From the NCBI GenBank assembly GCA_038885755.1, contig JAVZZH010000001.1, positions 1-64,000 on the forward strand: a stretch of DNA of 64,000 bases. The letters are read 5' to 3'. The DNA comes from Candidatus Caldarchaeum sp. (lineage in GTDB: Archaea; Thermoproteota; Nitrososphaeria_A; Caldarchaeales; Caldarchaeaceae). The first letter of the stretch is position 1, and each line of letters starts with the position of its first letter. Of the stretch, positions 3,850 through 26,009 are shown one piece after another. The notes under the pieces were generated by a model, which worked only from the letters and a program-made list of their open reading frames with translations, searched no databases and was not told where the DNA came from. A program made the translations under genes and the position numbers.

Positions 3850-3898
3850 CCACTTGTCAGTGGTTAAATCTTATATACCGACGAGGAGCAGGAACAAC

Positions 3899-5682: not shown

Positions 5683-5719
5683 GACAACCTTTAAAACCAT
5701 CTGATCAGAACTATTCCGC

Positions 5720-6796
5720 ATGGCGAAGAGACCGGCTGCGAAACCAACCTACGTGGGCAAACTTCAAGGAAGAGACTTCCTGAATACAAACGACTTTAGC
5801 CAAGAGGAGATAAACAACATACTCAAAGCAGCTAGGGACTTGAGGCAGAGGTTCAGGGCGAAGAAACCAACCGACTATCTCAAAGGCCAGACGCTTTTCA
5901 TGCTCTTCTACAACAGGTCTCTCAGAACCCGAAACTCGTTCGAGGCGGGCATCTACCAGCTGGGAGGCCACGCACACTTCCTAAGCCCCTCAGACGTCTA
6001 CACTCCAACCCTGCCAGAGGACATGATACCGTACCAGACAGAGTCGATAGCGGATGTTGCACGAGTGCTAAGCACTTACGGCGACGCCATAGCCGTCAGA
6101 ATCTACGGAGATGCCGCGAAATGGCACATCGGGAGAGGGCACAGAGTGATTCAGGAGTTCGCCAAGTGGAGCAGCGTTCCCGTCCTCAACATGGAGGACG
6201 ACATCTACCACCCCTTCCAAGCGCTGGCCGACATAATGGCGATAACAGATGTAGCGCCTAAACCTCAGGGGAAGAAGTTCGTCGTCTCCTACGCATACTC
6301 AGGCGGTTTGAAGCCGCTGGCCGTTCCTCAAAGCTGCATCCTGATAGGTACTCAGTTCGGCATGGACGTGGTGCTAGCCCACCCACCCGGCTTCGAGCTC
6401 GAGGACCACGTGATAGAGGCGTGCAGGAAAAACGTCGAGAAGTACGGCGGCTCTTTCACAATATCCCACGACATGAAAGAGGCGTTCGAGGGCGCTGACT
6501 TCGTATACCCCAAGGCATGGTCTCCGAAGAAGTTCTTCCCACCCTACAACTCCATCGTAGACAAAGAAGGCGCCACAAAATACCAAGACGGCTACAAGAG
6601 CTGGATATGCACCCAGGAACTGATGGACCTGACAAACAAGGGTAAGTATATGCATTGCGGCCCAGCCGACAGAGGGCAGGAGGTTGTCGACGAAGTTATC
6701 GACAACCCCAGCTACTCGCTGTATTTCCAGCAGGCTGAGAACAGGCTCCACGTCCAGAAAGCCGTGATGTCGATGGTTATGGGTCGCAGGAGATGA
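5720..6796 (+). CDS. Carbamoyltransferase, YgeW/AOTCase-like
   Basis: FYNRSLRTRNSFE, HPFQALAD, YAYSGGLKPLAVPQS (resembles YgeW WAYSPSYGKPLSVPQ), HCGPADRGQEV, QAENRLH. Confidence 0.85.
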   Translation: MAKRPAAKPTYVGKLQGRDFLNTNDFSQEEINNILKAARDLRQRFRAKKPTDYLKGQTLFMLFYNRSLRTRNSFEAGIYQLGGHAHFLSPSDVYTPTLPEDMIPYQTESIADVARVLSTYGDAIAVRIYGDAAKWHIGRGHRVIQEFAKWSSVPVLNMEDDIYHPFQALADIMAITDVAPKPQGKKFVVSYAYSGGLKPLAVPQSCILIGTQFGMDVVLAHPPGFELEDHVIEACRKNVEKYGGSFTISHDMKEAFEGADFVYPKAWSPKKFFPPYNSIVDKEGATKYQDGYKSWICTQELMDLTNKGKYMHCGPADRGQEVVDEVIDNPSYSLYFQQAENRLHVQKAVMSMVMGRRR

Positions 6797-7821
6797 AGAT
6801 CCACGACGACGTTCTGGACCTCATAGGGGGCACGCCGCTCCTCAAGCTGTCGAGGATTCCGAGGGAGGAGGGCGTTGAGGCCGAGGTCTACGCCAAGCTG
6901 GAGTTCTACAACCCGACGGGAAGCCTCAAGGACAGGATCTACAGGGAGATGATCACTAAGGCTGTCGAGAGGGGAGACCTCAGGCCAGGCATGGAGATCC
7001 TCGAGGTATCGACGGGCAACGCAGGCATAGCCTGCAGCTTCGTAGGCACTCATCTAGGCTACAGGGTGACGATCGTGATGCCTGAGGGGATGAGCGAGGA
7101 AAGAAAACAGCTTATCAAGGCTTTCGGAGGCGAGCTCGTCTTCACGCCCGGCGCCGAGAGCGACGTCGACCTCAGCCTGAAGAAGGCTGAGTCTATGATG
7201 GCCTCGAGCCCGGGAAAGTACTGGTTCCCCAACCAGTTCACGAACCCCGACAACGTGCAGGCCCACGTCAAGACGACGGGGCCCGAGATATGGGACCAGT
7301 CAGGAGGTAAAGTCGACTGCTTCGTCATGTCGCAGGGCTCTGGCGGAACGGTCTCAGGGGTGGGCAGGTTTCTGAAGAGCAAGAACCCCAGCATAAAAGT
7401 CTACACGGCTGAGCCAAGCGAGGCCCCTATAATATCGGACGGCGTCTGGGGCTCGCACAAGATCGAGGGTATTGGAGACGGGTTCATTCCACGCAACCTA
7501 GACCTAGGAGTCCTCGACGGAGTCGTGACAGTGTCTTCGGCCGAGTCGATAGAGATGACGAAGAAGCTCGCGAGGCTGGAGGGAGTTTTCTGCGGCATTT
7601 CATCCGGATGCAACGTCGCAGCAGCCATCAAGGTCGCCAAGAGACATCCACGTCTCCGCCGTATCATAACTCTGGTCTGCGACTCGGGAAACCGCTATCT
7701 CTCGACAGAAGCCTTCGGCCCCGGCAAGAAAGCCGCTATCCCTGAGCGTGAGCATGTCTTGGACGAGTATACAGTCGAACAGCGGCAGAAGCATCTTTCA
7801 AGGCTGGAAATCGTGAGGTAG
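6793..7821 (+). CDS. PLP-dependent cysteine synthase (CysK/M)-family protein
   Basis: IGGTPL, KLEFYNPTGSLKDR (PLP lysine), HKIEGIGDGFIP, GISSG; substrate loop STGNAG is atypical. Confidence 0.85.
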   Translation: MKIHDDVLDLIGGTPLLKLSRIPREEGVEAEVYAKLEFYNPTGSLKDRIYREMITKAVERGDLRPGMEILEVSTGNAGIACSFVGTHLGYRVTIVMPEGMSEERKQLIKAFGGELVFTPGAESDVDLSLKKAESMMASSPGKYWFPNQFTNPDNVQAHVKTTGPEIWDQSGGKVDCFVMSQGSGGTVSGVGRFLKSKNPSIKVYTAEPSEAPIISDGVWGSHKIEGIGDGFIPRNLDLGVLDGVVTVSSAESIEMTKKLARLEGVFCGISSGCNVAAAIKVAKRHPRLRRIITLVCDSGNRYLSTEAFGPGKKAAIPEREHVLDEYTVEQRQKHLSRLEIVR

Positions 7822-7844
7822 AAAAGCTTTATTTCCTTAATTTT

Positions 7845-8330
7845 ATGAAAACAGGCGTGGATAATAGTGGTGTTTTGACCGACAAAGTTCTCGGCGGCAG
7901 GGTGTTTGTACTGTCTGCGAAGACGTTTGTAGAGACCGTTAAAATGCTGGGCGCCTCGATTTCTCAGCCTGCTGCAGACGCATTGTTCTGGAACATGGGG
8001 CACCGGTATGGTTTGGCGTTGGGCAACAAGTTCAAGGAGAAATCGCCAGACGAGGGCATCATGATCCTATCTGTTGCTGCTATGAACTCCGGCTGGGGTT
8101 TGCCACAAGTGGTGAACAACTACTACTCCGAGGGCGTGATAGAGGTTTCTTTCGAGAACTGTGTATTCTGCGACGGGTTGTCTGGCTCGGACAGCCCCAG
8201 ATGCTACTTCTTAGCTGGGGTTCTCACCGGAATAGCTGAAAGCCTTTATCACGAGCGCTTCAAAACCCTCGAGACCGAATGCATTGCAAAGAACAACCAA
8301 GTCTGCAGGTTCGTAATCCGGAAAGAATGA
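7845..8330 (+). CDS. Stand-alone V4R-domain protein
   Basis: GWG, CVFC, CYFLAGVLTG, ETECIAKNNQVCRF. Confidence 0.8.
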   Translation: MKTGVDNSGVLTDKVLGGRVFVLSAKTFVETVKMLGASISQPAADALFWNMGHRYGLALGNKFKEKSPDEGIMILSVAAMNSGWGLPQVVNNYYSEGVIEVSFENCVFCDGLSGSDSPRCYFLAGVLTGIAESLYHERFKTLETECIAKNNQVCRFVIRKE

Positions 8331-9583
8331 CGGTCTTACGTATGTATGTCGAGAAGCTTGTCTGCTCCCGCTGCGGATCCGAGTACGATATCAGAGAAAG
8401 CCCCGTGATGTGTAGTAAAAATGATTTGGGGAGGTTGGATGTTGTCTATGACTACGACCGGTTGATGGAGAGTCTGTCGAGGGACGGGGTTTCGAGGAGG
8501 AAGATGGGCGGCGTCTGGCGGTACTGGGAGCTCCTGCCAGTCGATAAAAAATTCGCCGCGTCTTTGATGGAGGGCGGCACCCCGTTGGTCAAAGCCACTC
8601 GTCTCGCAAGCCACCTAGGGTTCAAGGCTGTTTACGTCAAGGATGAGACGAGGAACCCTACCGCTTCCTTCAAGGACAGGGCCATGGCTGTTGGCGTCGC
8701 CAAGGCGGTTGAAACTGGACGTAGGGACGTCGTCATAGCTTCCAGCGGGAACGCTGCCTCGTCTCTGGCGGCTTACAGCGCGTCCATGGGCCTGAGGTGC
8801 CATGCGTTCGTCCCCGAGGACGTGTCGACGGGCAAGGCTTCGCAGCTTCTACTTTACGGTGCTAAGGTTCTACGTGTCAGGCAGACAGTCGAGGGCAGAG
8901 ACCCGACCGTCGACCTCATGCTCCAAGCGGTTTCCAAGCTAGGCTGGTATCCCTGCCCCAGCTTCGGCCCCTTCAACCCCTATCAAGTAGAGGGACCCAA
9001 GACGATTGCCTACGAGGTTCTCGAGCAGCTGGGCTGGGTTGTTCCAGACGCCGTTCTCGTTCCCACGGGTTCGGGATGCTTGGCTGCAGGTGTTTGGAAG
9101 GGGTTGAGAGACATGATGCGGCTTGGATGGATAGACAGCTATCCAAAACTCATACCTGTCCAGCCGGCTGGGAACCAGCCTCTAGCAAGAGCCATCAAGA
9201 AGGGAATGAGCTACTCCGAGATCGAGCCGGAGAAAAACCCGCGCTCGATAGCCTCGGGTCTTCTCGACCCGTATCCATGGGACGGGGACGCTGCCATCGA
9301 AGGAGTCAGGGCTACGAACGGCTTCGCCGAGACTGTTGAGGAGGATGAGATCAGGGAATCTGTCCGCTTTCTGGCGAGGTTGGAGGGAATTTTCGCAGAG
9401 CCTTCTGGAGCCGTCGGCGTCCTAGCCGCTAAGAAACTCCTAGACCAAGGGGTTTTAGACCCCTCGGACACGGTGGTAATTCTCGCCACGGGTTCGGGGC
9501 TGAAGGAGCCTGAGAAGGTTGTCTCGGGCGAGACCATTCCAACCATCTCTCCAGACCTCGACAGCCTGTTGAAGTTTTTATAA
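8327..9583 (+). CDS. Threonine synthase-like PLP enzyme (fold type II) with N-terminal Zn ribbon
   Basis: CSRCG, EGGTPL, KDETRNPTASFKDR, SSGNAA, VPTGSG, TGSGLK; ATG at 8327 overlaps the V4R stop (ATGA). Confidence 0.85.
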   Translation: MTVLRMYVEKLVCSRCGSEYDIRESPVMCSKNDLGRLDVVYDYDRLMESLSRDGVSRRKMGGVWRYWELLPVDKKFAASLMEGGTPLVKATRLASHLGFKAVYVKDETRNPTASFKDRAMAVGVAKAVETGRRDVVIASSGNAASSLAAYSASMGLRCHAFVPEDVSTGKASQLLLYGAKVLRVRQTVEGRDPTVDLMLQAVSKLGWYPCPSFGPFNPYQVEGPKTIAYEVLEQLGWVVPDAVLVPTGSGCLAAGVWKGLRDMMRLGWIDSYPKLIPVQPAGNQPLARAIKKGMSYSEIEPEKNPRSIASGLLDPYPWDGDAAIEGVRATNGFAETVEEDEIRESVRFLARLEGIFAEPSGAVGVLAAKKLLDQGVLDPSDTVVILATGSGLKEPEKVVSGETIPTISPDLDSLLKFL

Positions 9584-9603
9584 CGCACTGAGTGAGCTGA
9601 ACC

Positions 9604-10563
9604 ATGGAAGCGGGCGAGCTGATAGTCGTTGCATTGGGTGGGAATGCTCTTCTACGACGTGGTGAGAAGGGGTCTTTCGAGGAGCAGTACAACAACGTTG
9701 GCAGGACAGCCGTTTTTCTAGCAGACCTCGTTGAGGCCGGGTACAAGCTGGTCATCACACACGGCAACGGTCCTCAGGTGGGGGCCACGCTGCTCCGCCA
9801 CGACGCGGGACATAAACTGCACGGCATACCCGCTTTCCCGATGGATGCTTGCGGAGCTGAAACCCAAGGCTTCATAGGCTACACCATCCAGCAGAACCTC
9901 AGAAACGAGCTGAAGAGGAGAGGAATAGACAAGTATGTCATCACCGTCATCACGCGCGTGATCGTGGACAAGGACGACCCTGCCTTCAAAAACCCTTCCA
10001 AGCCGATTGGTCCTTTCTACAGCAGGGAGGAGATGGAGAAGATTAAGGCGGAGCATCCGGAATTCGTCTTCGCCGAGGACAAGGCCCGCGGAGGATTCAG
10101 GAGAGTTGTGCCGTCGCCGGACCCGAAGATAATCGCCGAAAGACACGCCATAAGGAAGCTTGTGGACTCGGGCTTCATAGTCGTGGCCAGCGGTGGCGGC
10201 GGGATTCCGATAATCGAGGAGAACGGCAGGGCTCAGGGCGTGGAGGCTGTCATCGACAAAGACTTGGCTGGAGAGAAGCTAGCCGAGCTCATCGGTGCCA
10301 GCAGGTTCATCATCCTCACAGACGTGGACGGAGCCTACATCAACTACGGCAAGCCGGACCAGAAGAAGCTGGAAAGGGCGACGGCTAGCGAAGCTAGGCG
10401 GTATCTTGAGGCTGGCCATTTCGCCTCAGGCAGCATGATGCCTAAAGTGCTTGCCTGCATCAGGTTCGTCGAGAACGGCGGGAAAGAAGCCATCATAGCC
10501 GAGCTATCACAGCTGAAGGAAGCCATAGCCGGCAGCGCGGGCACGCACATACTACCGGGATAA
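9604..10563 (+). CDS. arcC: Carbamate kinase
   Basis: VALGGNAL, THGNGPQVG, NPSKPIGPFY, RRVVPSP, GGGGIP, EAVIDKD, GSMMPKV. Confidence 0.95.
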   Translation: MEAGELIVVALGGNALLRRGEKGSFEEQYNNVGRTAVFLADLVEAGYKLVITHGNGPQVGATLLRHDAGHKLHGIPAFPMDACGAETQGFIGYTIQQNLRNELKRRGIDKYVITVITRVIVDKDDPAFKNPSKPIGPFYSREEMEKIKAEHPEFVFAEDKARGGFRRVVPSPDPKIIAERHAIRKLVDSGFIVVASGGGGIPIIEENGRAQGVEAVIDKDLAGEKLAELIGASRFIILTDVDGAYINYGKPDQKKLERATASEARRYLEAGHFASGSMMPKVLACIRFVENGGKEAIIAELSQLKEAIAGSAGTHILPG

Positions 10564-11577
10564 AACTCCCGCTACGAGAGCCAGGATAGCGGCCCTGACG
10601 TAGAGAAGGTTCTCAGCCTGGTCGTATATGACGCTTCTAGGGCCGTCCATGACATCGTCGTCAGCCTCCTGCCCCCTGAAGACCGGCAGCACGTGTGTGA
10701 CGACGCCGTTCTTAGCCATCAAGTCCGTCAGCTGCTTCGTTAGCTTCCAGTCCCTGTGCTTGTTGTGGAGCTCGACCTCCCTCTCCCTGCCAAACCTGTT
10801 CATGCCCGTCATCACACATTCGTGGCTGGCCCAGCTTCTCGGAAAGACAGCGTCAGCCCCGTTGAGAGCCTCTCTGTAGTCGTGAACAATCTCCACGCTG
10901 CCCCCGCTCTCCTCGGCGTTCCTACGAGCCTGCTCAACGATTTTGCCGTCTATGTCGAATCCCGGGGGGTAGGCTAGGACAACGTCCATCCCGAACCTCG
11001 AGGATATGAGCAGCTCGTCCTGAATGCTTCCCCAGCTCCTCACCTTGTCGCTGTAAGCCCACATCAGCACGTATTTCTTCTTCTCCACTCTCCCCAGCTT
11101 CTCCCTCAGGGTGTAAAGGTCTGTGATTGCTTGGCTGGGGTGGTACATGTCGTCAGCCATGTTGATTACAGGGATCTTTGCATGCTCGGCGTACTCCCTG
11201 ACGACGGCGTTGCCTCTCCCGTAAACGTAGTCGACGGCTGACTCGAGTATCCTCACGCCCAGAACCTGTCCAAGCCTCTCGTACATCTTGGCTATGTCCC
11301 GGACGGACTCGCCCTCAGCTCCGCGGGTTGTGGCGAAGTCGATGAACTGAGCATGGCCGCCCAGCATGGTTGCGGCCGCCTCGAAGCTGGCGCGGGTACG
11401 GGTCGACGTGTTGTAGAACAGCATGAACATCGTCCTGTTCTTGAACAATTCAGGAACGTCTCCCGAAGCTCTCTTTATCTTCAACAGCCTAGCCAAGTTC
11501 ATAGTTGCCTCTATTTCCTCGACGCTCCAGTCCTGCGACGAGATTAGGTCTCGACCGTGGAGGTCAAGCAGGGTCAT
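10552..11577 (-). CDS. Second carbamoyltransferase, YgeW/OTCase-like
   Basis: FYNTSTRTRASFE, HPSQAITD, WAYSDK, HVLPVFRGQE, QAEN. Confidence 0.85.
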   Translation of the reverse strand: MTLLDLHGRDLISSQDWSVEEIEATMNLARLLKIKRASGDVPELFKNRTMFMLFYNTSTRTRASFEAAATMLGGHAQFIDFATTRGAEGESVRDIAKMYERLGQVLGVRILESAVDYVYGRGNAVVREYAEHAKIPVINMADDMYHPSQAITDLYTLREKLGRVEKKKYVLMWAYSDKVRSWGSIQDELLISSRFGMDVVLAYPPGFDIDGKIVEQARRNAEESGGSVEIVHDYREALNGADAVFPRSWASHECVMTGMNRFGREREVELHNKHRDWKLTKQLTDLMAKNGVVTHVLPVFRGQEADDDVMDGPRSVIYDQAENLLYVRAAILALVAGVLSR

Positions 11578-11602
11578 GCTGATACCGGCTTTCTTTCAAA
11601 TT

Positions 11603-13924
11603 TTAGGCTTTCTTCAGCGCTTCCAACACAGCGTGGGGCTTCATGGGAAGCTGTCTGACATACACTCCTGTCGCGTGGGCGACTGCGTTGGCTATGGCTG
11701 CGGCTGGAAGAACGACAGGTATCTCGCCCATCGCTTTTGCGCCGAAAACTCCCACGGACCCGGGAACTTCGACGACCAAGCTCTTCATCTCCTTCGGTGC
11801 ATCGCTGGCTGTCGGTATTATGAAAGTGTGGAGGGATGGGTTGACGACGAAGCCTTTTTCGTGGACAACTTCCTCGGTGAGCGCGTATCCGAGACCCATG
11901 ATGCCCCCTCCCTCGTAAACAGCTATCAAGCCCAGCGGGTTTATGGCCCTCCCGACGTCGTAAGCTGCGATAAGCCTTTCAACCTCGACAAACCCGGTCT
12001 CGGTGTCGACGACGACTTCAGCGGCTAAAGCCCCGTAGGTGTACTGGTTGTAGGGAGAGCCTTGGCCCGTCTCAGGGTCCCACTTGGTCGGCGGAGCTAT
12101 GTAGTGGCCTAAGGCCTTCAGCTCGACGCCCTTCTCCCAGCACTGCTGAACGGCCTCCTCCCACTTGACCATCCTGCCCGACGAATGAACAATTAACCCA
12201 TCCCTGAACTCAAGCTCTCTGGCGTCGACTCCCAGAAGCTCCGCGGCCGCAGAAGCTACTTTGGCCTTGATCTTGAGAGCCGCGTCGAGCGCCGCGTTTC
12301 CCCCGATCGCCGTGGTCCTAGATGCTACGGTTGGACCTGAGCTGGGTACTGCGGCTGTGTCGGGCCTCTCGAGCCTGACCTTCGAAAGAGGTAAGCCAAG
12401 CACCTCCGCAACGACTATGATGAGGGATGTTAGGGCGCCTGTGCCGTATTCTGTCAGACCCGTCTGAACGACGACCGTGCCGTCCCTCTCCACCCGTGAG
12501 ACAACGGTCGCGAAGTCGTCTCCCTCAGGACCGAGGGTGTTGCCGTGATACAGGAGAGCTATACCGATGCCTTTCTTCACACTCCTGCTCCGCTTGTTAA
12601 ATTCCTCGAACTCCCTTACCCGCGTCTCCCACGAGGAAGATTCGACGACCAGCCGGTAGCATCTGAGAAGCCCGTCGTCATCGACTCGCTGGCTTGTGGC
12701 GGTAAGAGAACCCGGTCTCAGCATGTTGGCTTCACGGATTTCGAGGGGTGAGAGCCCGATCTCTTCAGCCAGCTCGTTCATCAGCGACTCGGCTGCAAAG
12801 TGTGCTTGAGGAGCGCCGAACCCACGCGTGGACCCTGCCATGGTGTTGTTTGTGTAGACGCAGTAGCCGTCGGCCCAGACGTTGGGAACTTCGTAAGGCC
12901 CTGTGCAGTGGAAAGTCGCCCTGCCTATCACGAGATGACCCTTCGAGACGTAGGCTCCCGTGTCCTCCACCAGAGTAGACTTCCAAGCGATTAGTTTGCC
13001 CTGCTTGGACGCTCCAACCTTGTGAGTTATCTCGAACGGATGCCTCTTGCACTGCACCGTAATAGCCTCGCTCCTAGTGAAAGCTGCCAGCGACGGTCTG
13101 CCCGTGTAGTATGTGGCGAGGCAGGCGTATGCTGCGACGTCGATGGGGGTCTCGTCCGACTTGGGGCCGAACCCGCCTCCGGTGGCTGCTTGAACGACTC
13201 GGAGCTTTTCAGGAGGCAGTCCGAGTATCTGGCGAACCTTGTGGTAGACGTCGTGTAGGTTCTGCATCGAAGATATGCAGGTTATTCCGCCGTCTCCGTC
13301 AGGGTAAGAGTAAGCTATCTCGATTTCAAGGGGAAGACCGGTGATAAACTGAGTCCGGTAGGTTCTTTCTAATACCACATCTGATTGTTTGAAGCCTTGC
13401 TCAACGTCTCCCTTTCTTATCTTGAAGTGGGTGACGATGTTGCCCTTGTCGTGTATGCGTGGCGCTGCGTGGTCCATGGCTTCAGCAGGGCTGGCCACAA
13501 CCGGCAGAGGGTCGTAGTGAACTTCGACGAGGTCTGCGGCCTCCTCAGCGTCCTCCACCGTTTCGCCTACAACCAAGGCGATAGCTTCGCCTACATGCCT
13601 CACCCTGTCCACAGCCAGCAACGGCCTGTCGGGTATGAGGCTTCCAGCATCGTTCTGACCGGGTATTTCACGATGAGTTATGATTTTCTTGACGGAGGGT
13701 CTTCTCTCCAGCTTGCTGAAGTCCACGTTCCTTATCAAGGCGTGGGGAAGCCTCGACCTAACGGCCTTGACGAAGAGGGGTTTCTCGGACACTAGGTCTG
13801 CGGTGTACATGGGTCTTCCGAGGACGGCGTCGACAGCATCCACCCGCGCCACCTTCTTCCCAACCACTAGGAATTCACGAGCCTTCAGGATCTCCTTAAA
13901 CCTCTCAGTAATCTCCTCGCTCAT
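11603..13924 (-). CDS. Xanthine dehydrogenase-family molybdopterin-binding subunit
   Basis: GGGFGPK, RHPF, GSTRGFGAPQ, TEYGTG, TVASRT, GAKAMGE; lacks the CoxL form I AYRCSFR motif. Confidence 0.92.
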   Translation of the reverse strand: MSEEITERFKEILKAREFLVVGKKVARVDAVDAVLGRPMYTADLVSEKPLFVKAVRSRLPHALIRNVDFSKLERRPSVKKIITHREIPGQNDAGSLIPDRPLLAVDRVRHVGEAIALVVGETVEDAEEAADLVEVHYDPLPVVASPAEAMDHAAPRIHDKGNIVTHFKIRKGDVEQGFKQSDVVLERTYRTQFITGLPLEIEIAYSYPDGDGGITCISSMQNLHDVYHKVRQILGLPPEKLRVVQAATGGGFGPKSDETPIDVAAYACLATYYTGRPSLAAFTRSEAITVQCKRHPFEITHKVGASKQGKLIAWKSTLVEDTGAYVSKGHLVIGRATFHCTGPYEVPNVWADGYCVYTNNTMAGSTRGFGAPQAHFAAESLMNELAEEIGLSPLEIREANMLRPGSLTATSQRVDDDGLLRCYRLVVESSSWETRVREFEEFNKRSRSVKKGIGIALLYHGNTLGPEGDDFATVVSRVERDGTVVVQTGLTEYGTGALTSLIIVVAEVLGLPLSKVRLERPDTAAVPSSGPTVASRTTAIGGNAALDAALKIKAKVASAAAELLGVDARELEFRDGLIVHSSGRMVKWEEAVQQCWEKGVELKALGHYIAPPTKWDPETGQGSPYNQYTYGALAAEVVVDTETGFVEVERLIAAYDVGRAINPLGLIAVYEGGGIMGLGYALTEEVVHEKGFVVNPSLHTFIIPTASDAPKEMKSLVVEVPGSVGVFGAKAMGEIPVVLPAAAIANAVAHATGVYVRQLPMKPHAVLEALKKA

Positions 13925-14376
13925 CTATTCCTCGCCCTTTCGAAAGCCTCCACAAACCTCAGGTAGCTTCCGCACCTGCACAGAACGCTTCTGAGTGCGT
14001 GCCTCACCTCCTCGACGGAGGCCGACGGCTTGGTGTCCATCAGGTACTTCAGCACTAGCAACGTTGAAGGAATGCAGAACCCGCACTGAACAGCACCCAC
14101 GTCCACGAAAGCCTGTTGAAGCGGGTGAAGCTTACCGTCCGCGGCCAAACCCTCCACGGTCGTTATCGTCCTGCCTTCAGCTTGGTAAGCCAGCATTAGG
14201 CATGAGTTGACCGGCCTTCCGTCAACCAGCACCACGCAGAGGCCGCAGTCTCCGACCCCGCACCCCTCCTTCACACCCATGAGACCAAGCCGTTTACGGA
14301 GAAGGTCTGTAAGCCTCTCGTTGCTCTCCACGTCGACTGTATAGTCGACGCCGTTAACATTGGTTTTAATCTTCAT
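13921..14376 (-). CDS. Xanthine dehydrogenase-family 2Fe-2S subunit
   Basis: KEGCGVGDCGLC, QCGFC, LCRCG; ATG at 14376. Confidence 0.92.
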   Translation of the reverse strand: MKIKTNVNGVDYTVDVESNERLTDLLRKRLGLMGVKEGCGVGDCGLCVVLVDGRPVNSCLMLAYQAEGRTITTVEGLAADGKLHPLQQAFVDVGAVQCGFCIPSTLLVLKYLMDTKPSASVEEVRHALRSVLCRCGSYLRFVEAFERARNR

Positions 14377-16566: not shown

Positions 16567-16569
16567 CTG

Positions 16570-17577: not shown

Positions 17578-17603
17578 TAGTAATGGAACTTTAGTTATTT
17601 ATT

Positions 17604-17621
17604 CTTTGTCGATAGACAAAG
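17604..17621. promoter_or_regulatory. Palindromic candidate operator between divergent promoters
   Basis: CTTTGTC-GATA-GACAAAG, a perfect 7-bp inverted repeat flanked by TATA-like boxes on both strands (TTATAT at 17623; TTATTTATT at 17595). Confidence 0.55.
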
Positions 17622-17654
17622 GTTATATCAGCGCAGGGATTGTATCGCTGAGTA

Positions 17655-19439
17655 ATGACAAGGACGAAGCTGTACAGCGTGTCTAAAGACCTTGTTAGGA
17701 CAGCTTTGGGTCTGGAGAAGGCGGACTTGGTTGTTAGGGGCGGGAGCTTGATTAACGTACATACTAGGGAGCTTGTTGAGAACGTGGATGTGGTGGTCAA
17801 GCACGGTAGGGTCGCACTCGTCGGCGACGCATCGCCTTGCATAGGGTCGGGCACGCTTGTTTACGACGCTGATGGCAAGTACCTCGTTCCCGGACTGATA
17901 GACCCTCACGTTCACATAGAAAGCTCCATGGTCGGCGTGACCGAGTTCGCCAGAATAGTTCTTCCCCACGGTACGACGACCGTTTTCATCGACCCCCATG
18001 AGATAGGCAACGTCTTCGGGTTCGACGGAGTGAAGCTGATGGTTGACGAGTCGAGGAACCTGCCTCTCAAGGTGTTCATCACCTATCCCTCCTGCGTTCC
18101 AGCTGCACCGGGGTTCGAGACCGCTGGGGCGGCAATAGGGCCTGAGGAGGTGGGTGAAGCCATGAAGCTGGAGGAGGTAGTTGCTCTCGGCGAGATGATG
18201 AACTATCCGGGGGTGCTCGCATGCGACGACAACGTCCATGCAGAGATAGCGGAGGCTTTGAGGGCTGGAAAGCTCGTCGAGGGCCATGACTCGGGGTTGA
18301 TGGGTAGGGAGCTGGCGGCTTACGTCGCCGCCGGAGTGATGTCAACCCATGAAAGCGTCTCCAAAAGCCAGACTCTTGAACGCTTGCGAAACGGCATGTA
18401 TGTTTATTTGAGGGAGGGGAGTGCTTGGCTCGACATCAAAGACACGGTCAGAGCCTACACAGAGACAGGCATAGACCCGCGCCACATATGTCTGTGCACA
18501 GACGACAAGGAGCCGGCCTCGATAATCAGGGACGGACACATGGACCACTGTCTCAGGAGGGCGGTTGAGGAGGGGGTGGACCCGCTGACGGCTGTGCAGA
18601 TGTGCACGATCAACCCTGCCGAGCGGTACCGGATGGCTCACGAGATAGGAAGCATCTCACCAGCACGCATAGCCGACATATTAGTCGTGTCAGACCTCAC
18701 TAAGTTCAAGGTCGAAGCTGTGTTCGCCGACGGGGAACTCGTTGCAAAGCAGGGAAGGCTTTTGAAGACCATGCCGGACTACCGCTACCCGGATGTTTTC
18801 ACGAAAAGCGTCAAGCTAGGGCGGGTGCTGCGGCCGGAGGACTTCGTTATCCACTCAAAGCATGAACAGGGCGAAGTTAGGGCACGTGTGATCCAAGCCG
18901 TCGAAGGCAGCGTAATCACGAAGCACGTCATAGAGAAGATGGAGGTCTCCAAGCATAGCATTAGCGGAGACCCGGATAGAAGCATTTTGAAGACAGCAGT
19001 GATAGAGAGGCATGGAAAATCAGGCGGAATGAGCCTCGGGCTGACTAAAGGGTTTGGGTTCAGGAAGGGAGCTGTTTCCTCGACGGTAGCCCACGACAGC
19101 CACAACCTTCTAGTGATTGGCTACGACGAGAAGGACATGGCTCTGGCGGCTAACGAGAACGCACGGATCAACGGAGGCATCGTGACCGTTGCTGACGGCG
19201 AGGTGGTTGCGCGAGTCGAGCTGTCTCTGGCGGGGTTGATGTCGACGGAGACGGCGGAGCGGGTGGCTGATAAGCTCAACAAAACCTACAGCGTGTGGAG
19301 GAGGCTTGGATGCGAATGGGTCTCGCCTTTCATGACGATGTCGTTGCTCAGCCTCAGCGTAATACCCGAGCTCCGGATAACGGACAGAGGATTGCTCGAC
19401 ACGGTGACGTTCCAGTTCGTCGAACTCGTGTTGGATTAG
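17655..19439 (+). CDS. ade: Adenine deaminase (AdeC type)
   Basis: PGLIDPHVHIESSM, DPHEIGNV, LGEMMNYPGV, LREGSA, CTDD, STVAHDSHNL, LSLSVIPELRITDRGL. Confidence 0.93.
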   Translation: MTRTKLYSVSKDLVRTALGLEKADLVVRGGSLINVHTRELVENVDVVVKHGRVALVGDASPCIGSGTLVYDADGKYLVPGLIDPHVHIESSMVGVTEFARIVLPHGTTTVFIDPHEIGNVFGFDGVKLMVDESRNLPLKVFITYPSCVPAAPGFETAGAAIGPEEVGEAMKLEEVVALGEMMNYPGVLACDDNVHAEIAEALRAGKLVEGHDSGLMGRELAAYVAAGVMSTHESVSKSQTLERLRNGMYVYLREGSAWLDIKDTVRAYTETGIDPRHICLCTDDKEPASIIRDGHMDHCLRRAVEEGVDPLTAVQMCTINPAERYRMAHEIGSISPARIADILVVSDLTKFKVEAVFADGELVAKQGRLLKTMPDYRYPDVFTKSVKLGRVLRPEDFVIHSKHEQGEVRARVIQAVEGSVITKHVIEKMEVSKHSISGDPDRSILKTAVIERHGKSGGMSLGLTKGFGFRKGAVSSTVAHDSHNLLVIGYDEKDMALAANENARINGGIVTVADGEVVARVELSLAGLMSTETAERVADKLNKTYSVWRRLGCEWVSPFMTMSLLSLSVIPELRITDRGLLDTVTFQFVELVLD

Positions 19440-19475
19440 CGGATAAAGATATATACCCCTAGCGACATCTATAAG

Positions 19476-20798
19476 TTGATGAATGAAAAGCAAGGAATAT
19501 CGAGGCGTAAGTTCCTAGCTGTTTCCTCTGGAGTAGCGGCCGGGTCTGTCGCCGCCGCAGCTGTCGTAGGCGGTCTCGCCGGGTATTTTGCTGGTGTTTC
19601 CCAAGCACCTCCAGCCACAACTAGGACAGTGACTACGCCCGGTGCCACAGTGACGATGACCGCGCCCCCGAAGAGGTTGAAGGTTGGCTACATCTACGTA
19701 GGTCCTGTGGGAGACTTTGGATGGACTTACGCCCACAACGAAGGAAGAAAGTGGGCTGATTCGATGTTCAAGAACGTTGACAGCTCCTACATAGAGAGTG
19801 TTCCTGAAGCGGAGTCGGCTGGGGCGATAGAGTCGCTTATAAACCAAGGAGCTGACTTGGTCATAACCACTAGCTTCGGATACATGGACCAGACGGCTGA
19901 AGTAGCTGCAAAGCATCCCGACAAGTATTTTGTACACATATCTGGATACAGAAGCGGAGCAGCTGGCAACGCTCCTCAAAACATGAGCAGCGCCTTCGCC
20001 GAGTTTTATCAACTATACTACCTGAACGGTCTGGCAGCAGGAGCGGTCACTCAAACAGGTGTCGTGGGCTACGTGGCAGCTCACCCCATTCCCGAGGTAG
20101 TACGACACATAAACGCGTTCGTCATCGGAGCAAACTACTCCTACAAAAAACGAACAGGCCGAAACATCCGAGCATACGTAAACTGGTTGTTCAGCTGGTT
20201 CGACCCGGGGAAGACACGACAGGCCGCAACAGCTCTAGTTGAGGAGTCCAACGCAGACGTTTTGGCTTTCACCGAAGACTCGCCGACAACGCTACAGGTT
20301 GCGGAGGAATACACCACTCGTAAGGGGAGGAGGGTGTGGAGCTTCAGCCACTACGGAGACATGACGCAGTACGGCCCGAACTCTCATCTCACGGGGCAGA
20401 TCGTACACTGGGGGCCCATCTACCTAGACTTTTACAGAATGGTCGCCACCAACACATGGCGGTCCGTAGACATATGGACCCGGATAGGAGACTACATGCC
20501 CTACAGATGGAGAAGGCCCGTTGACAAGAGCACGGCGGGACAGGTTGACGGAACGCTGCAGCTGGGAAAGCTCAACCCAGCTATCCCCAGCGAGTGGCAG
20601 ACAGAGATAAAGAAGCGGTACGAGGAGATGAAGGAGCTGCTATTCGAGCCTTTCAGCGTAGAGGGCAACGGAGGCGAACCCATCAGGGACCAGAAAGGCG
20701 AAGTAAGGATAAGCGGTACCCAGCGAGCCGACTGGGACATGCTATGGAACATGGACTGGTTCGTCGAATACATCTTGAGCGAGCTACCTAGAGGATAG
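19476..20798 (+). CDS. BMP-family nucleoside/purine ABC substrate-binding protein with Tat signal
   Basis: SRRKFL Tat motif, T/P-rich linker, IYVGPVGDFGWTYAH, TTSFGY, IPEVVRHINAF, SWFDP. Confidence 0.9.
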   Translation: MMNEKQGISRRKFLAVSSGVAAGSVAAAAVVGGLAGYFAGVSQAPPATTRTVTTPGATVTMTAPPKRLKVGYIYVGPVGDFGWTYAHNEGRKWADSMFKNVDSSYIESVPEAESAGAIESLINQGADLVITTSFGYMDQTAEVAAKHPDKYFVHISGYRSGAAGNAPQNMSSAFAEFYQLYYLNGLAAGAVTQTGVVGYVAAHPIPEVVRHINAFVIGANYSYKKRTGRNIRAYVNWLFSWFDPGKTRQAATALVEESNADVLAFTEDSPTTLQVAEEYTTRKGRRVWSFSHYGDMTQYGPNSHLTGQIVHWGPIYLDFYRMVATNTWRSVDIWTRIGDYMPYRWRRPVDKSTAGQVDGTLQLGKLNPAIPSEWQTEIKKRYEEMKELLFEPFSVEGNGGEPIRDQKGEVRISGTQRADWDMLWNMDWFVEYILSELPRG

Positions 20799-20851
20799 CG
20801 GCTTAACCTCCACAAATTTTTTATTCCCAACAATAGAATCTTGGTGGGAGA

Positions 20852-22384
20852 ATGGGCGAGGAGGAATACTTAGTGGAGATGACCGGGATTGTGAAGAAGT
20901 TTCCCAACGTGGTGGCGAACGACAACGCATGCTTCACGCTTAAACGTGGAGAGGTTCACGCTCTTCTAGGCGAGAACGGGGCGGGCAAAACAACCCTGAT
21001 GAACATACTGTACGGCATCTACCGCCCCGACGCCGGCACGATAAAGGTTTACGGAAAACCGGTCGTCATCAGAGGCCCGAAGGACGCTATCCAGCTGGGC
21101 ATAGGAATGGTCCACCAGCAGTTTAAGCTCATCCCCGTGCACACCGTGCTCGAAAACGTCGTCCTAGGAATCAAGCAAACAGGCTTCGTCCTCAACACGA
21201 GAAAAATAAGCCAAGACCTGTCGCAGATGATCTCCAGCTATGGATGGAAAATATCGCCGGATGCCAGAGTGTGGCAGCTTTCAGCCGGCGAGAAGCAGCA
21301 GGTCGAGCTTTTGAAGGCTTTGTACAGAAGAGCTAGGATACTCATAATGGACGAGCCGACCTCGGTCTTGACGCCTCAAGAGACGAGCGTTCTATTCAAA
21401 ACGCTGCGGAAGATGGCTGCTGAAGGGCTTGGCGTGGTGCTGATAACTCACAAGCTCGACGAAGTGATGGCTGTGAGCGACAGGGTCACGGTCATGCGGG
21501 CTGGACGAACTGTCGCCACAAAGCCGACGAAAGAAACCAGCATAGAGGATCTGGTCAACATGATGATAGGGCGACCCTTGATTAAGATACAAACACCAAG
21601 GGTGATTGCTAGGAACAAGCCTGTGCTGGAAGTGTCCAGCCTCGTAGTCCTGAACGACAAAGGGTTGGAGGCTGTCCGAAGGGTCTCATTCAAGCTTTAT
21701 GAGGGAGAGATTCTAGGCGTGGCTGGTGTTTCGGGCAACGGGCAGCAAGAGCTCCTCGAAGCGATAGCCGGGTTGAGGAAAGCAGTCTCGGGTAGAGTTT
21801 TTCTCAACTCGGCTGACATAACAAACCGCCATCCACTAGAGATAATCAACGCAGGAGTGGCCTACATTCCAGCCGAATCCTTGAGATATTCTGCGCCTGA
21901 CATGACGGTCGCCGAAAACCTCTTCCTCAAAGCGTACAGGCTGAGAGAATTCTCCAATGGCTTTTTAATCAACTGGCGCAACTTGGAGGAAAAATCGAGA
22001 CAACTCATCAAAGACTTTAACATCGTGACTCCTTCCACGCGCAACAAGGTCGGAAACCTGTCAGGCGGCAACGTGCAGAGACTCGTGCTGGCAAGAGAGC
22101 TGGAAACCATTCCAGACCTTAAAGTAATTCTTGCAGGCTATCCCACTAGAGGGCTTGACATCGCCTCGACGGAGTTCATCCATCAGATGCTGCTGAAAAA
22201 GACTGACCGGGGGGTTGCTGTTCTTCTAGTTTCTGAGGAGCTCGAGGAGCTTATGTCCTTGAGCGATAGGATTATGGTGATGTACAAGGGTGAGGTGGTG
22301 GGCGTTTTGGAGAGAGGACGGTATGATCTGGAGGAGATTGGCCTGATGATGACAGGCGTCAGAAGGGAGGAAGTGAGCGCTTGA
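20852..22384 (+). CDS. Nucleoside ABC transporter ATPase (two NBDs)
   Basis: GENGAGKTT, GMVHQQF, DEPTSVL, GVSGNGQ, LSGGNVQ, PTRGLD. Confidence 0.93.
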   Translation: MGEEEYLVEMTGIVKKFPNVVANDNACFTLKRGEVHALLGENGAGKTTLMNILYGIYRPDAGTIKVYGKPVVIRGPKDAIQLGIGMVHQQFKLIPVHTVLENVVLGIKQTGFVLNTRKISQDLSQMISSYGWKISPDARVWQLSAGEKQQVELLKALYRRARILIMDEPTSVLTPQETSVLFKTLRKMAAEGLGVVLITHKLDEVMAVSDRVTVMRAGRTVATKPTKETSIEDLVNMMIGRPLIKIQTPRVIARNKPVLEVSSLVVLNDKGLEAVRRVSFKLYEGEILGVAGVSGNGQQELLEAIAGLRKAVSGRVFLNSADITNRHPLEIINAGVAYIPAESLRYSAPDMTVAENLFLKAYRLREFSNGFLINWRNLEEKSRQLIKDFNIVTPSTRNKVGNLSGGNVQRLVLARELETIPDLKVILAGYPTRGLDIASTEFIHQMLLKKTDRGVAVLLVSEELEELMSLSDRIMVMYKGEVVGVLERGRYDLEEIGLMMTGVRREEVSA

Positions 22385-23454
22385 GCAGATCATTCAACTT
22401 CAAGCTTGAGCGGAGGCCAGATATCTCCCGAAAATACTCGGCCGGCATAACCCTGTTCTTTTTCCTGCTCGCAATCCTCGCAGCAAGCCTCATCTTCGAG
22501 CTTTTAGGAGTCAGCTCATACGAAACAGTTTCAAAAGTCATTTACGTCTTCACCACGCCCTCCACCCTTCTACAAGCCATCCTGAGAGGACTTCCCATGG
22601 GCTTCGCAGCCTTGGGTCTCTGCCTTGCCTTCAGGATGAACTTCTGGAACATAGGAGCAGAGGGGCAGATATACATGGGAATGGCTGCCTCCACGGGGGT
22701 GGTTTTGCTCCACGTCTACTACGGGTTTTTACCCGATTTTCTAGTTATTCCATCGATGGTTGCTGTATCTTTTTTAGCAGGCGGAGCCTACTGTCTATTA
22801 CCGGCTTTCCTCAAGGCTCGGCTGGGAGTCAACGAGATCCTGCCAACACTCATGCTTAACTACGTGGCTATTCTGTTCGTCGACTTCCTCGTCTACGGCC
22901 CGTGGAGAGACCCGAAAGGTTTCGGCTTTCCGCACTCGATTGTTTTTCCCGACTACGCTAAAATGGAGACTGTTTTGGGACATTCTGCCTACTTGGGTCT
23001 TCCGGCAGCTGTTGTCGTTGCCGCCTTGTTATACGGTCTTCTGAACAAAACCGTGATAGGTTTTGAGGCTAGAGTCTTGGGCCAGAACGTTGAAGCTGGG
23101 AGGTATGCAGGCATCAAGATTGGAAGAACTCTTTTGACCGGGGGCATGATTGCAGGAGGCTTGGCGGGTCTGGGAGGATTGGTTCTAGTGAGCGGAATAA
23201 TAGGGAGGCTAAGGCCCAGAGCCTCGCCCGGCTACGGCTACACTGCAATAATAATCGCCTTCCTCGCCTCCCTCAATCCATGGCTTGCAGTACCAGCAGC
23301 CATCTTCTTCGGAGGCCTCCTCGTCGCAGGAGACGTGATACAAGCAACGCTGAACCTTCCTTTCGCCGCCGTTCAAATATTTCAGTCAACCATCTTCCTG
23401 ATGATAATCTTAGGAGAGTTCTTCAAGCGCTACAGAATCAGGGTGGTCAAATGA
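22381..23454 (+). CDS. Nucleoside ABC transporter permease 1
   Basis: WNIGAEGQ, NEILPTLMLNYVA, GYGYTAIIIAFL. Confidence 0.9.
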   Translation: MSRSFNFKLERRPDISRKYSAGITLFFFLLAILAASLIFELLGVSSYETVSKVIYVFTTPSTLLQAILRGLPMGFAALGLCLAFRMNFWNIGAEGQIYMGMAASTGVVLLHVYYGFLPDFLVIPSMVAVSFLAGGAYCLLPAFLKARLGVNEILPTLMLNYVAILFVDFLVYGPWRDPKGFGFPHSIVFPDYAKMETVLGHSAYLGLPAAVVVAALLYGLLNKTVIGFEARVLGQNVEAGRYAGIKIGRTLLTGGMIAGGLAGLGGLVLVSGIIGRLRPRASPGYGYTAIIIAFLASLNPWLAVPAAIFFGGLLVAGDVIQATLNLPFAAVQIFQSTIFLMIILGEFFKRYRIRVVK

Positions 23455-24431
23455 TCGACGTAGCTTGGCTGAGCTCGGTTCTCGCAGGCGCCGTCGCAGC
23501 CGGGACGGTTTTTCTGCTGGCATCCCTCGGCGAGATTTATGCCGAGCGTTCCGGAGTTCTGAACCTAGGCATGGAGGGCATGATGATAGTTGGAGCAGCG
23601 GTCTCGTTCATTTTCACCAACGCTCTGGGGCAAGGCGCTGCCTTGCTTGCAGTGGTTGTCGTAGGCTTGGTGCTGGGTCTTTCCCATGCCTTTTTCACAG
23701 TATCCCTCAAGCTCAACCAGATAGTGGTCGGGCTTGCTTACACCATACTTGGCCTCGGAATCGCGGGATTGATTACGGCGGCCGAGATAAGACGAAGAAT
23801 TATACTGATTCTCAACCCTTCAACCCCCGAGAGACTCTTGATCACTCAAGAAGCTGAGAAACTCCCCACCATGCCCATACCCGTGCTCAAAGACATTCCT
23901 TTGATTGGGCCGATGTTCTTCAACCAGAACATCCTCGTCTACCTTTCACTCATCCTGAGCTTCGTGATGTGGTTTCTGCTCTTCAAGACCCGGTTCGGAT
24001 TAAGCCTCCGTTCCTGCGGCGAGAACCCCTCCATGGCGGACACGCTGGGCGTGAACGTCTATCGAACAAGATATACAGCCATGGGTGTCTGCGGGGCGCT
24101 CGGATCCCTCGCCGGCGCATACCTCTTCATCGGCTACCAAGCTTTCTGGGTCGAGGGGATGACACAGGGGAGAGGCTTCATCGCATTAGCTCTCGTCATA
24201 CTAGCTACGTGGAGCCCTTTGAGAGCAATCCTCGGAGCCTATCTCTTCGGAGGAGTGGAGACTCTTCAGTTCCGGCTTCAAGTAATGGGCGTCGCGGCAC
24301 AGCTTCCGCAGTTTCTTCTCATGCTTCCCTACGTCGTGACAATCATCACCCTGACGCTTCTATCGCTTGAATCCGTGCGTAAACGGGTCGGAGTGCCGGC
24401 TTCTCTAGGCGTCCCGTATACACGAGAGTAG
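23451..24431 (+). CDS. Nucleoside ABC transporter permease 2
   Basis: GEIYAERSGVLNLGMEG, CGENP, GRGFIALA, MLPY; ATG at 23451 overlaps the upstream stop. Confidence 0.9.
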   Translation: MIDVAWLSSVLAGAVAAGTVFLLASLGEIYAERSGVLNLGMEGMMIVGAAVSFIFTNALGQGAALLAVVVVGLVLGLSHAFFTVSLKLNQIVVGLAYTILGLGIAGLITAAEIRRRIILILNPSTPERLLITQEAEKLPTMPIPVLKDIPLIGPMFFNQNILVYLSLILSFVMWFLLFKTRFGLSLRSCGENPSMADTLGVNVYRTRYTAMGVCGALGSLAGAYLFIGYQAFWVEGMTQGRGFIALALVILATWSPLRAILGAYLFGGVETLQFRLQVMGVAAQLPQFLLMLPYVVTIITLTLLSLESVRKRVGVPASLGVPYTRE

Positions 24432-24432
24432 A

Positions 24433-26007: not shown

Positions 26008-26009
26008 AG

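Follow-up and report, generated by a model that had tools for sequence, protein, structure and literature searches.

A putative archaeal variant of reductive purine degradation encoded by a gene island of Candidatus Caldarchaeum

The first 64 kb of contig C1 of a Candidatus Caldarchaeum genome (hereafter the window) hold a conserved island of 16 genes at 5720-24431 with which this hot-spring archaeon probably degrades the purine ring to gain energy and nitrogen, following an archaeal variant of the reductive uric-acid (2,8-dioxopurine) pathway. The host genome (G000) comprises 1.33 Mb in 10 contigs and is 86.5% complete. An archaeal purine-degradation island had already been proposed here in an earlier note made from the DNA letters, and comparative genomics now supports that reading through a tree of the carbamoyltransferases, a tree of the amidohydrolase and the co-occurrence of the genes across archaea; each step assigned below is drawn from protein families and gene context. 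The strongest comparative argument concerns ring reduction: an F420-type luciferase-like oxidoreductase (LLM) and a UacX-type reductase are mutually exclusive in otherwise similar clusters, which suggests that the LLM carries out this step.

Elucidation of the reductive uric-acid pathway dates only from 2025 and is confined to gut bacteria. According to two preprints (Li et al., bioRxiv 10.1101/2025.05.19.654654; Liu et al., bioRxiv 10.1101/2025.04.24.650524), E. coli first converts urate to 2,8-dioxopurine with the reductase XdhD-YgfM; ring reduction and opening by YgfK and SsnA then yield ureidomethylhydantoin, from which HyuA forms 2,3-diureidopropionate. YgeW then phosphorolyses one ureido group, YqeA makes ATP from the resulting carbamoyl phosphate, YgeY hydrolyses the other ureido group and YgeX turns diaminopropionate into pyruvate; the two preprints disagree on which ureido group YgeW removes. 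Li et al. also describe a C. difficile variant, in which the PydA-like UacX (PF01180) replaces YgfK and which has the hydrolase UacY, and Chloroflexota, whose SsnA neighbourhoods hold a putative F420-dependent luciferase-family enzyme (PF00296) identified by neighbourhood analysis only.

The 16 island genes are arranged in three strand blocks (plus, 5720-10563; minus, 10552-17577; plus, 17655-24431), and Pfam and NCBIfam recovered in them every family that the earlier note had named:

5720-6796, plus strand: CT1, an extra carbamoyltransferase (Pfam OTCace_N and OTCace)
6793-7821, plus strand: CysK-like fold-type-II pyridoxal phosphate (PLP) enzyme (Pfam PALP)
7845-8330, plus strand: V4R-domain protein (PF02830, 50.2 bits)
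8279-9583, plus strand: ThrC-like PLP enzyme (Pfam PALP)
9604-10563, plus strand: carbamate kinase (TIGR00746, 425 bits, cut-off 358.25)
10552-11577, minus strand: CT2, a second extra carbamoyltransferase (Pfam OTCace_N and OTCace)
11603-13924, minus strand: molybdopterin (large) subunit of a xanthine dehydrogenase (XDH)-family enzyme (Ald_Xan_dh_C, MoCoBD_1 and MoCoBD_2)
13921-14421, minus strand: XDH-family 2Fe-2S subunit (Fer2_2 and Fer2)
14366-15202, minus strand: XDH-family FAD subunit (FAD_binding_5 and CO_deh_flav_C)
15199-16566, minus strand: SsnA-like amidohydrolase (top NCBIfam model SsnA)
16570-17577, minus strand: F420-type luciferase-like (Mer-like) oxidoreductase, the LLM (PF00296, 233.4 bits)
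17655-19439, plus strand: adenine deaminase (TIGR01178, 556.6 bits, cut-off 472.5)
19476-20798, plus strand: Bmp/PnrA-like substrate-binding protein of an ATP-binding cassette (ABC) importer (PF02608, 109.5 bits)
20852-22384, plus strand: double-domain ABC ATPase (ABC_tran, two stretches)
22381-23454, plus strand: ABC permease (BPD_transp_2)
23280-24431, plus strand: second ABC permease (BPD_transp_2 at residues 72-357; NCBIfam match from residue 58)

Two of the listed starts are probably too far upstream. Given the 175-base overlap of its open reading frame (ORF) with the preceding gene, the second permease probably starts near 23451, and the real start of the ThrC-like gene probably lies about 20 codons downstream of the listed one.

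In the pathway that we propose, the Bmp-type ABC system would import purine nucleosides or bases and adenine deaminase would produce hypoxanthine, while the XDH-family enzyme would set the purine oxidation pattern, a role perhaps shared with another, similar XDH encoded outside the window. The LLM would use F420H2 to reduce, and so dearomatise, the ring in the role of YgfK or UacX, the SsnA-like amidohydrolase would open the reduced purine ring, and a hydantoinase encoded outside the window (C1:571333-572703; within the cluster in sister lineages) would open the remaining ring to give 2,3-diureidopropionate. CT1 and CT2 would then remove both ureido groups by phosphorolysis, releasing carbamoyl phosphate that carbamate kinase would convert to ATP and that may also supply arginine and pyrimidine synthesis in a genus where the carbamoyl-phosphate synthase subunit CarB is rare. 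The ThrC-like enzyme, the CysK-like enzyme or both would dispose of 2,3-diaminopropionate, either to pyruvate and ammonia or by beta-replacement.

The case for the LLM as ring reductase comes from a scan for SsnA-like genes over one genome per species, which gave 205 relatives, of which the best 80 were examined. These 80 were almost all archaeal (Caldarchaeum, Pelearchaeum, Calditenuis, Nitrososphaerales, Bathyarchaeia, Desulfurococcales, Thor and other Asgard archaea, Hecatella and Baldrarchaeota), with a few bacteria. In the 31 of these loci whose SsnA-like protein is at least 59% identical to that of the window (group A), the LLM shares the locus with the SsnA-like gene in 27, and three of the four misses lie at a contig end. 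Eight LLM-less loci, from Hecatella, Baldrarchaeota, genus g11, Desulfurococcales and Geothermarchaeota, carry in the locus of the SsnA-like gene a DHO_dh protein with a 4Fe-4S domain, the family of C. difficile UacX, and six of these eight also hold CT1, CT2, kinase or ThrC-like genes. According to Li et al. (2025), SsnA genes lie beside a purine-ring reductase (YgfK, UacX or an LLM), a trait that the archaeal SsnA-like genes share. The suggestion of the earlier note that an LLM stands in for YgfK is therefore not new, since Li et al. had reported it for Chloroflexota, but the alternation of LLM and UacX-type reductase lends it comparative support here. The top NCBIfam models of the LLM are F420 Mer models (209.2 and 206.5 bits, cut-offs 348.7 and 276) and its closest solved relative is Mer (183.7 bits). 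Its family is very large, with 7995 matches at E <=1e-40 among 8000 candidates scored, and bears the automatic public name 'methylenetetrahydromethanopterin reductase'.

The SsnA-like amidohydrolase has NF005540/TIGR03314 as its top NCBIfam family, the next family scoring 282.6 bits, and it is the only protein of the genome that E. coli SsnA matches (178 bits, 30% identity). In a 35-row quick tree, E. coli SsnA was sister to the archaeal SsnA-like clade (SH-aLRT 85) within a set supported at 99, and E. coli GuaD, the genome's other amidohydrolase (Amh_C4) and several in-locus paralogs fell outside this set. The HxH, the two further His, the Asp and the Glu are invariant in nine SsnA-like orthologs. 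The placement with SsnA, apart from GuaD and the other paralogs, bears out the earlier label of SsnA-like and is not the grouping with MTA/SAH deaminases that would have spoken against the earlier proposal.

The island genes also travel together. We counted orthologs over 75 other genomes of the class; because relatives are not independent, genus counts are the fairer measure. An SsnA-like ortholog (at least 53% identity) occurred in 29 of the 75, and an LLM ortholog (at least 77% identity) in 26, all of them among those 29 and none among the other 46. CT1 was found in 33 genomes, including every one of the 29 SsnA-like holders, CT2 in 29, the ThrC-like gene in 32 and the CysK-like gene in 31. 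The genera with CT1, with ThrC-like and with CysK-like orthologs were identical (9 of 15), and all CT2 matches were confined to them. The whole cluster was kept in all five same-genus loci examined, with sub-sets in genera g2, g3, g4, g6 and g12, and farther afield a single Nitrososphaerales locus (L086) holds hydantoinase, kinase, LLM, SsnA-like, CT2, XDH, ThrC-like, CysK-like and CT1 genes. Co-occurrence and clustering, whose absence from related genomes the earlier note had named as grounds for rejection, thus extend from close relatives to distant archaeal phyla. Metatranscriptome contigs (two libraries of one study) from a relative 90-99% identical covered 29 of 30 and 30 of 30 bins of window positions 5001-25000; DNA carry-over is possible, and we do not count this as expression.

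We then considered the two carbamoyltransferases, which the earlier note had called YgeW-like. The genome encodes four such enzymes, namely CT1, CT2, a true ornithine carbamoyltransferase (OTC) on C3 and an aspartate carbamoyltransferase (ATCase) on C2; CT1 and CT2 are 38% identical and are each other's nearest paralogs in the genome. For both, the top NCBIfam model is N-acetylornithine carbamoyltransferase (AOTCase, NF003384), which CT1 reaches at 287.7 bits and CT2 at 229.2 bits (cut-off 288), and both stay below the cut-off of the OTC model TIGR00658 (232.7 and 202.7 bits, cut-off 280.85), whereas the genome's own OTC scores above its cut-offs at 375.5 and 370.6 bits; the ATCase scores 337.8 bits. 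E. coli YgeW in turn matched CT2 at 153 bits and CT1 at 148 bits, compared with 68 bits for the OTC and 49 for the ATCase (blastp). In a 27-row tree built without AOTCase, N-succinylornithine carbamoyltransferase (SOTCase) or putrescine carbamoyltransferase (PTCase) references, the CT1 clade, the CT2 clade and E. coli YgeW formed one group (support 99/98) that excluded E. coli ArgI, the genome's OTC, Desulfurococcales OTCs and the ATCases; within this group YgeW joined the CT2 clade weakly (81/74), on a long branch. CT1, CT2 and YgeW share the motifs AYS..KP..VPQ and YP(K/R)(A/S)W, where OTC has GDGNN and DxxxSMG. DxxxSMG, the ornithine loop of OTC, is present in the genome's own OTC and replaced in CT1 and CT2. 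In the alignment, the YgeW-specific insertions and C-terminal extension are missing from both. The YgeW-like label thus stands on the tree and the motifs and fails at the hidden Markov model (HMM) cut-offs, and CT1 and CT2 sit apart from the ArgF/ArcB type of enzyme with which a grouping would have spoken against the earlier proposal.

Among solved structures, CT1 is closest to Xanthomonas AOTCase (PDB 3kzk and related, about 221 bits) and CT2 to Pyrococcus OTC and AOTCase. The surroundings of CT1 are not those of an arginine gene, with the true OTC elsewhere and no arg genes nearby. Its archaeal family is strongly conserved and again very large (7191 matches at E <=1e-30 among 8000 candidates scored, the best 120 being 73-86% identical) and is publicly named, automatically, 'ornithine carbamoyltransferase' or 'N-acetylornithine carbamoyltransferase'. 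CT2 adjoins carbamate kinase in genera g1, g2, g3 and g12 and shares a locus with it in L101 and in six Nitrososphaerales loci, and in L111 a CT1-CT2-kinase group is found beside the SsnA-like gene. The distance between CT1 and CT2 is about 7 kb in five of five further Nitrososphaerales genomes, and in genus g11 the two lie on either side of a cyclic amidohydrolase.

These results bear on the plainest alternative, that the island consists of ordinary housekeeping genes (ArgF, CysK, ThrC, ArcC and generic aldehyde or CO dehydrogenase-type enzymes) with no common pathway. The public annotations of the CT1 and LLM families fit it, as do the ten XDH-family large-subunit genes in the genome, the window's included. 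We nonetheless disfavor this alternative as highly improbable, given that the true OTC and ATCase are encoded elsewhere, that both carbamoyltransferases fall under the OTC cut-offs and lack DxxxSMG, and that the genes show an accessory phyletic pattern with conserved clustering. The window copies of CT1, CT2 and the CysK-like and ThrC-like genes are additional ones, because separate OTC, ATCase, CysM-like and ThrC-paralog genes lie elsewhere in the genome.

The two PLP enzymes were examined in the same way. Outside the window the genome holds a second CysM-like gene and several other ThrC-like genes. Because CysK-like and ThrC-like orthologs are missing from 6 of the 15 genera and the genome has these other copies, the two genes are therefore accessory ones that travel with the carbamoyltransferases, not housekeeping synthases. 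Four solved ThrCs are identical at ASTGNT, NPxRxEGQ and GNAGN, and these positions are substituted in all ten ThrC-like orthologs, which come from several phyla: nine of the ten read ASSGNA, NPYQxEG and GS(G/A/S)C, the remaining one (from L111) having GAAA at the third motif. The genome's paralog at C1:606322-607536 retains the ThrC form. The substituted residues presumably belong to the phosphate-binding site of threonine synthase. With its altered active-site signature, the ThrC-like enzyme is a candidate stand-in for YgeX, and its gene adjoins the SsnA-like gene in Calditenuis and genus g11. The V4R protein is possibly a small-molecule-binding regulator; its position is conserved in the genus and in genome G014.

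Carbamate kinase, which is 46% identical to E. coli YqeA, is present in a single copy in the genome. CarB (TIGR01369) was not found in G000; of 12 other genomes of the genus just 1 has it, and two that are 99% complete lack it. Across the class, the distributions of CarB and carbamate kinase by genus are nearly complementary, with genus g15 having neither. Because of this near-complementarity and the absence or rarity of CarB here, the kinase may run anabolically, as the source of the cell's carbamoyl phosphate. Alternatively, carbamoyl phosphate released by CT1 and CT2 may pass straight to OTC and ATCase.

The possibly anabolic kinase is one of several points that weigh against a purine-degradation island, and it is central to an alternative in which two unrelated units happen to be adjacent: one for purine uptake, salvage and oxidation (importer, adenine deaminase, XDH and a deaminase-type amidohydrolase with the LLM), and one in which an anabolic kinase works with CT1, CT2 and the CysK-like and ThrC-like enzymes to build amino acids or carbamoylated compounds. 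The genome's sole carbamate kinase sits within this second module, in a genus that mostly lacks CarB, and in genus g13 the kinase occurs without CT1 or CT2 in 7 of 8 genomes. The module is found without an SsnA-like or LLM ortholog in two g5 genomes and in G014, and in genus g3 the module and the SsnA-like gene are on separate contigs. The PLP enzymes also pass synthase cut-offs, with the CysK-like protein at 348.7 bits on the cysKM subfamily model (cut-off 344.15; on the cysK equivalog it reaches 347.9 against 350.95) and the ThrC-like protein at 323.5 bits on the threonine-synthase model NF006050 (cut-off 303). We consider this alternative unlikely. All 29 holders of the SsnA-like gene also have CT1, and CT1, CT2, kinase and ThrC-like genes share the SsnA-like locus in rearranged orders in distant lineages, namely Nitrososphaerales (L086), Hecatella (L101), Desulfurococcales (L111, L147 and L149) and genus g11. 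The phyletic gaps and further copies that mark the PLP genes as other than housekeeping, the ThrC-invariant residues lost from the ThrC-like clade and the cyclic amidohydrolase between CT1 and CT2 in g11 count against it as well. The CT/PLP/kinase module, which in g5 adjoins an allantoinase-like amidohydrolase, is separable and may accept ureides from more than one source.

Further observations fall on the same, unfavorable side of the purine-degradation reading. The SsnA-like protein scores below both SsnA cut-offs (355.6 against 444 and 328.4 against 455.5), and its identity to E. coli SsnA is just the 30% given above, with the E. coli protein on a long branch. On the models of the knotted carbamoyltransferase YgeW, TIGR03316 and NF005538 (cut-offs 500 and 453), CT1 reaches 148.3 and 153 bits and CT2 147.8 and 155.3 bits, and for both proteins the AOTCase and OTC models outscore the YgeW models; the restricted reference set of the carbamoyltransferase tree counts here too. 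Equivalents of bovine E802 and F1009 are absent from the XDH-family large subunit, and the type of XDH differs between the clusters of different lineages. The window itself has no hydantoinase, YgeX, YgeY or YgfK. Many Bathyarchaeia SsnA-like loci have a different neighbourhood, with no LLM or carbamoyltransferase within 10 kb; their neighbours (L107-L144) include an allantoinase-like amidohydrolase in 21 loci, a MobA/MocA-like nucleotidyltransferase in 18 and a fusion of NUDIX and IF-2B (ribose-1,5-bisphosphate-isomerase-like) domains in 16, which hints at a link with nucleotide breakdown. As for the cofactor of the LLM, the late F420 biosynthesis enzymes CofD (C4:110279-111181) and CofE (C1:492590-493333) are above cut-off in G000, and FO synthase was not found, with no CofH in G000 and no CofG in any of four genomes of the genus (G000 and three others). 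CofD and CofE without CofG and CofH suggest uptake of the precursor FO or an unrecognised synthase.

When the proteins of the E. coli K-12 cluster were compared by blastp with every ORF of 60 amino acids or more in the 1.33-Mb genome, the outcome agreed with the gaps that the earlier note had reported. YgfK and YgeX had no match at 1e-5 genome-wide, YgeY gave only weak M20 matches, all outside the window, and three HyuA-like genes were found, again all outside the window. The hydantoinase that had been sought elsewhere in the genome is available as the candidate at C1:571333-572703, and because it lies elsewhere on contig C1 the island of this genome is incomplete. A TIGR02033 hydantoinase above cut-off is encoded within the cluster in genera g3, g6 and g12, and these proteins are 50-52% identical to the C1:571333 copy versus 34-41% to the copy at C1:157967, which we set aside as the pathway enzyme for this reason. 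Seventeen of the 31 group-A loci carry a hydantoinase 41-52% identical to the C1:571333 copy. In this genome that copy (locus L062, C1:571333-576261) adjoins the genes of another three-subunit XDH; its large subunit and that of the window are 42% identical and have the same active-site signature. On its other flank L062 has mevalonate-pathway-like kinases and a Memo-like gene. The dihydropyrimidinase-type hydantoinase at C1:157967 belongs to another locus (L063, C1:153000-159376) with an M20 peptidase, an ornithine cyclodeaminase-like gene, an asparaginase and a CN-hydrolase, which looks like a hydantoin or pyrimidine utilisation set.

The remaining genes of the island bear on the question of its substrate. 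The closest solved relative of the XDH-family large subunit is bovine xanthine oxidase/dehydrogenase (307 bits), and on the XdhA model NF043082 it scores 487.5 bits against an equivalog cut-off of 780. It keeps the equivalents of bovine R880, F914 and E1261 and has Ser for E802 and Leu for F1009, all five being residues of the bovine active site. In the alignment, neither E. coli XdhA nor E. coli XdhD keeps the full bovine signature; since they deviate, and since the type of XDH varies by lineage, the active site does not separate an oxidising from a urate-reducing role. The 2Fe-2S subunit has XdhC as its top NCBIfam model (166.5 bits, cut-off 217), and for the FAD subunit E. coli YgfM (70.5 bits) is a closer match than XdhB (50.8 bits). 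An Ade-family gene flanks the LLM and SsnA-like genes in genera g1, g3, g4, g6 and g10 too, and the Bmp/PnrA-like protein is kept beside the cluster in genera g1, g3, g4 and g12. Uricase and 2-oxo-4-hydroxy-4-carboxy-5-ureidoimidazoline (OHCU) decarboxylase, of the classical oxidative route, were not found in any of three genomes searched, G000 and two congeners that are 99% complete.

A related module touches on this question of substrate. Eight relatives (G001, G002, G004, G008, G010, G011, G012 and G014), and not G000, carry a paralogous LLM about 50% identical to that of the window with amidohydrolases of the same superfamily alongside; in locus L069 (G011:C1:361535-367552) it is flanked by two amidohydrolases, followed by an XDH-family large subunit. 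This module may be a sister pathway for another heterocycle. One could picture the window's own cluster degrading some N-heterocycle or ureide other than a purine (pyrimidines, pterins and allantoin-type compounds are examples), with the same LLM, amidohydrolase, hydantoinase and carbamoyltransferase chemistry. The paralogous cluster fits such a family of modules with different substrates; Mer, the nearest solved relative of the LLM, acts on a pterin; the hydantoinases match the dihydropyrimidinase model; and the neighbouring cyclic amidohydrolase is allantoinase- or dihydroorotase-like in g5, g10, g11 and Bathyarchaeia. We give this alternative a small chance, because the adenine-deaminase equivalog and PnrA-type importer accompany the cluster in several genera, the XDH has xanthine oxidoreductase as its best solved relative and keeps the R880 equivalent, the amidohydrolase has SsnA as both top NCBIfam model and tree sister, and no uricase route to allantoin was found in the three genomes searched. 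Purine-ring degradation remains our preferred reading of the island.

Upstream of the island (2842-5682) lie a major facilitator superfamily (MFS) transporter gene, a PNPOx-like gene and a MenA-like prenyltransferase gene, a trio syntenic with CT1 in genera g2 and g3. Downstream (24433-26579), a phosphoenolpyruvate (PEP) carboxylase gene is separated from the last permease by a gap of 1 base and is followed by ribosomal protein S7, a synteny kept within the genus.

Taken more broadly, the data allow a tentative proposal that we regard as possible but rather doubtful: that many uncultured archaea (Caldarchaeales, Nitrososphaerales, Hecatella, Desulfurococcales and others) ferment purines, with an F420H2-dependent LLM dearomatising the ring, two dedicated and hitherto unrecognised carbamoyltransferase families (CT1 and CT2, at present annotated as OTC or AOTCase) conserving both ureido groups as carbamoyl phosphate, and a re-tooled threonine-synthase paralog replacing diaminopropionate ammonia-lyase; in lineages without CarAB, Caldarchaeum among them, purine breakdown together with carbamate kinase would be the source of carbamoyl phosphate for arginine and pyrimidines. 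The two-carbamoyltransferase model, if true, would double the substrate-level ATP yield relative to E. coli. The island suggests that thermophilic and sediment archaea widely share the logic known from gut bacteria and use other enzyme families for at least three of the steps. Should the reading hold, two very large, highly conserved families now labelled OTC/AOTCase and methylene-tetrahydromethanopterin reductase would gain a function, and a specific substrate could be proposed for an F420 LLM. Archaea of energy-poor habitats would have a way to scavenge nucleic-acid bases that conserves energy by turning carbamoyl phosphate into ATP, and the lack of a carbamoyl-phosphate synthase in Caldarchaeum might be tied to purine catabolism. 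No description of such a pathway in archaea was found in literature searches, supplements aside, or in the searched passages of one Caldarchaeales genomics paper. The earlier note, which knew of none for Aigarchaeota (the former name of this group), is borne out to that extent, although the exchange of YgfK for an LLM is already in print for Chloroflexota.

Compared with known systems, the island resembles the E. coli pathway in its XDH-family enzyme with FAD subunit, its SsnA-type amidohydrolase beside a ring reductase, its pairing of carbamoyltransferase with carbamate kinase, the hydantoinase in the genome (or, in sister lineages, in the cluster) and the purine uptake and deaminase genes alongside. 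Unlike the E. coli cluster, it has no YgfK, YgeX or YgeY homolog; its reductase is an F420-type LLM, its PLP enzymes are of the CysK and ThrC families instead of the YgeX family, and it has two carbamoyltransferases of other subfamilies where E. coli has one YgeW and the YgeY hydrolase. With Chloroflexota it shares a PF00296 LLM beside SsnA in place of YgfK or UacX, a likeness by family and position only, and the module of two carbamoyltransferases with CysK-like and ThrC-like enzymes is not described in the consulted portions of that report, a bacteria-only survey. The eight LLM-less archaeal loci with a DHO_dh plus 4Fe-4S protein are the counterparts of the C. difficile UacX variant, the window itself having the LLM form; unlike that variant, six of the eight carry one or more of the CT1, CT2, kinase and ThrC-like genes.

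The proposed release of carbamoyl phosphate from ureido groups has a further parallel. In the arginine and agmatine deiminase pathways, a catabolic OTC or PTCase acts with carbamate kinase, so that ureido phosphorolysis gives carbamoyl phosphate and then ATP. The route proposed here would likewise proceed by ureido phosphorolysis to carbamoyl phosphate and ATP formation by the kinase; it differs in that CT1 and CT2 are neither OTC nor PTCase by HMM, motif and tree, the tree having no PTCase reference. Finally, CT1 resembles Xanthomonas AOTCase, both its best solved relative and its best NCBIfam model, and differs from it in a non-arginine gene context, in a genome that has its own OTC and in a partner, CT2, that is closer to Pyrococcus OTC. 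By analogy with AOTCase, the substrate of CT1 may be an N-alpha-acylated diamino acid.

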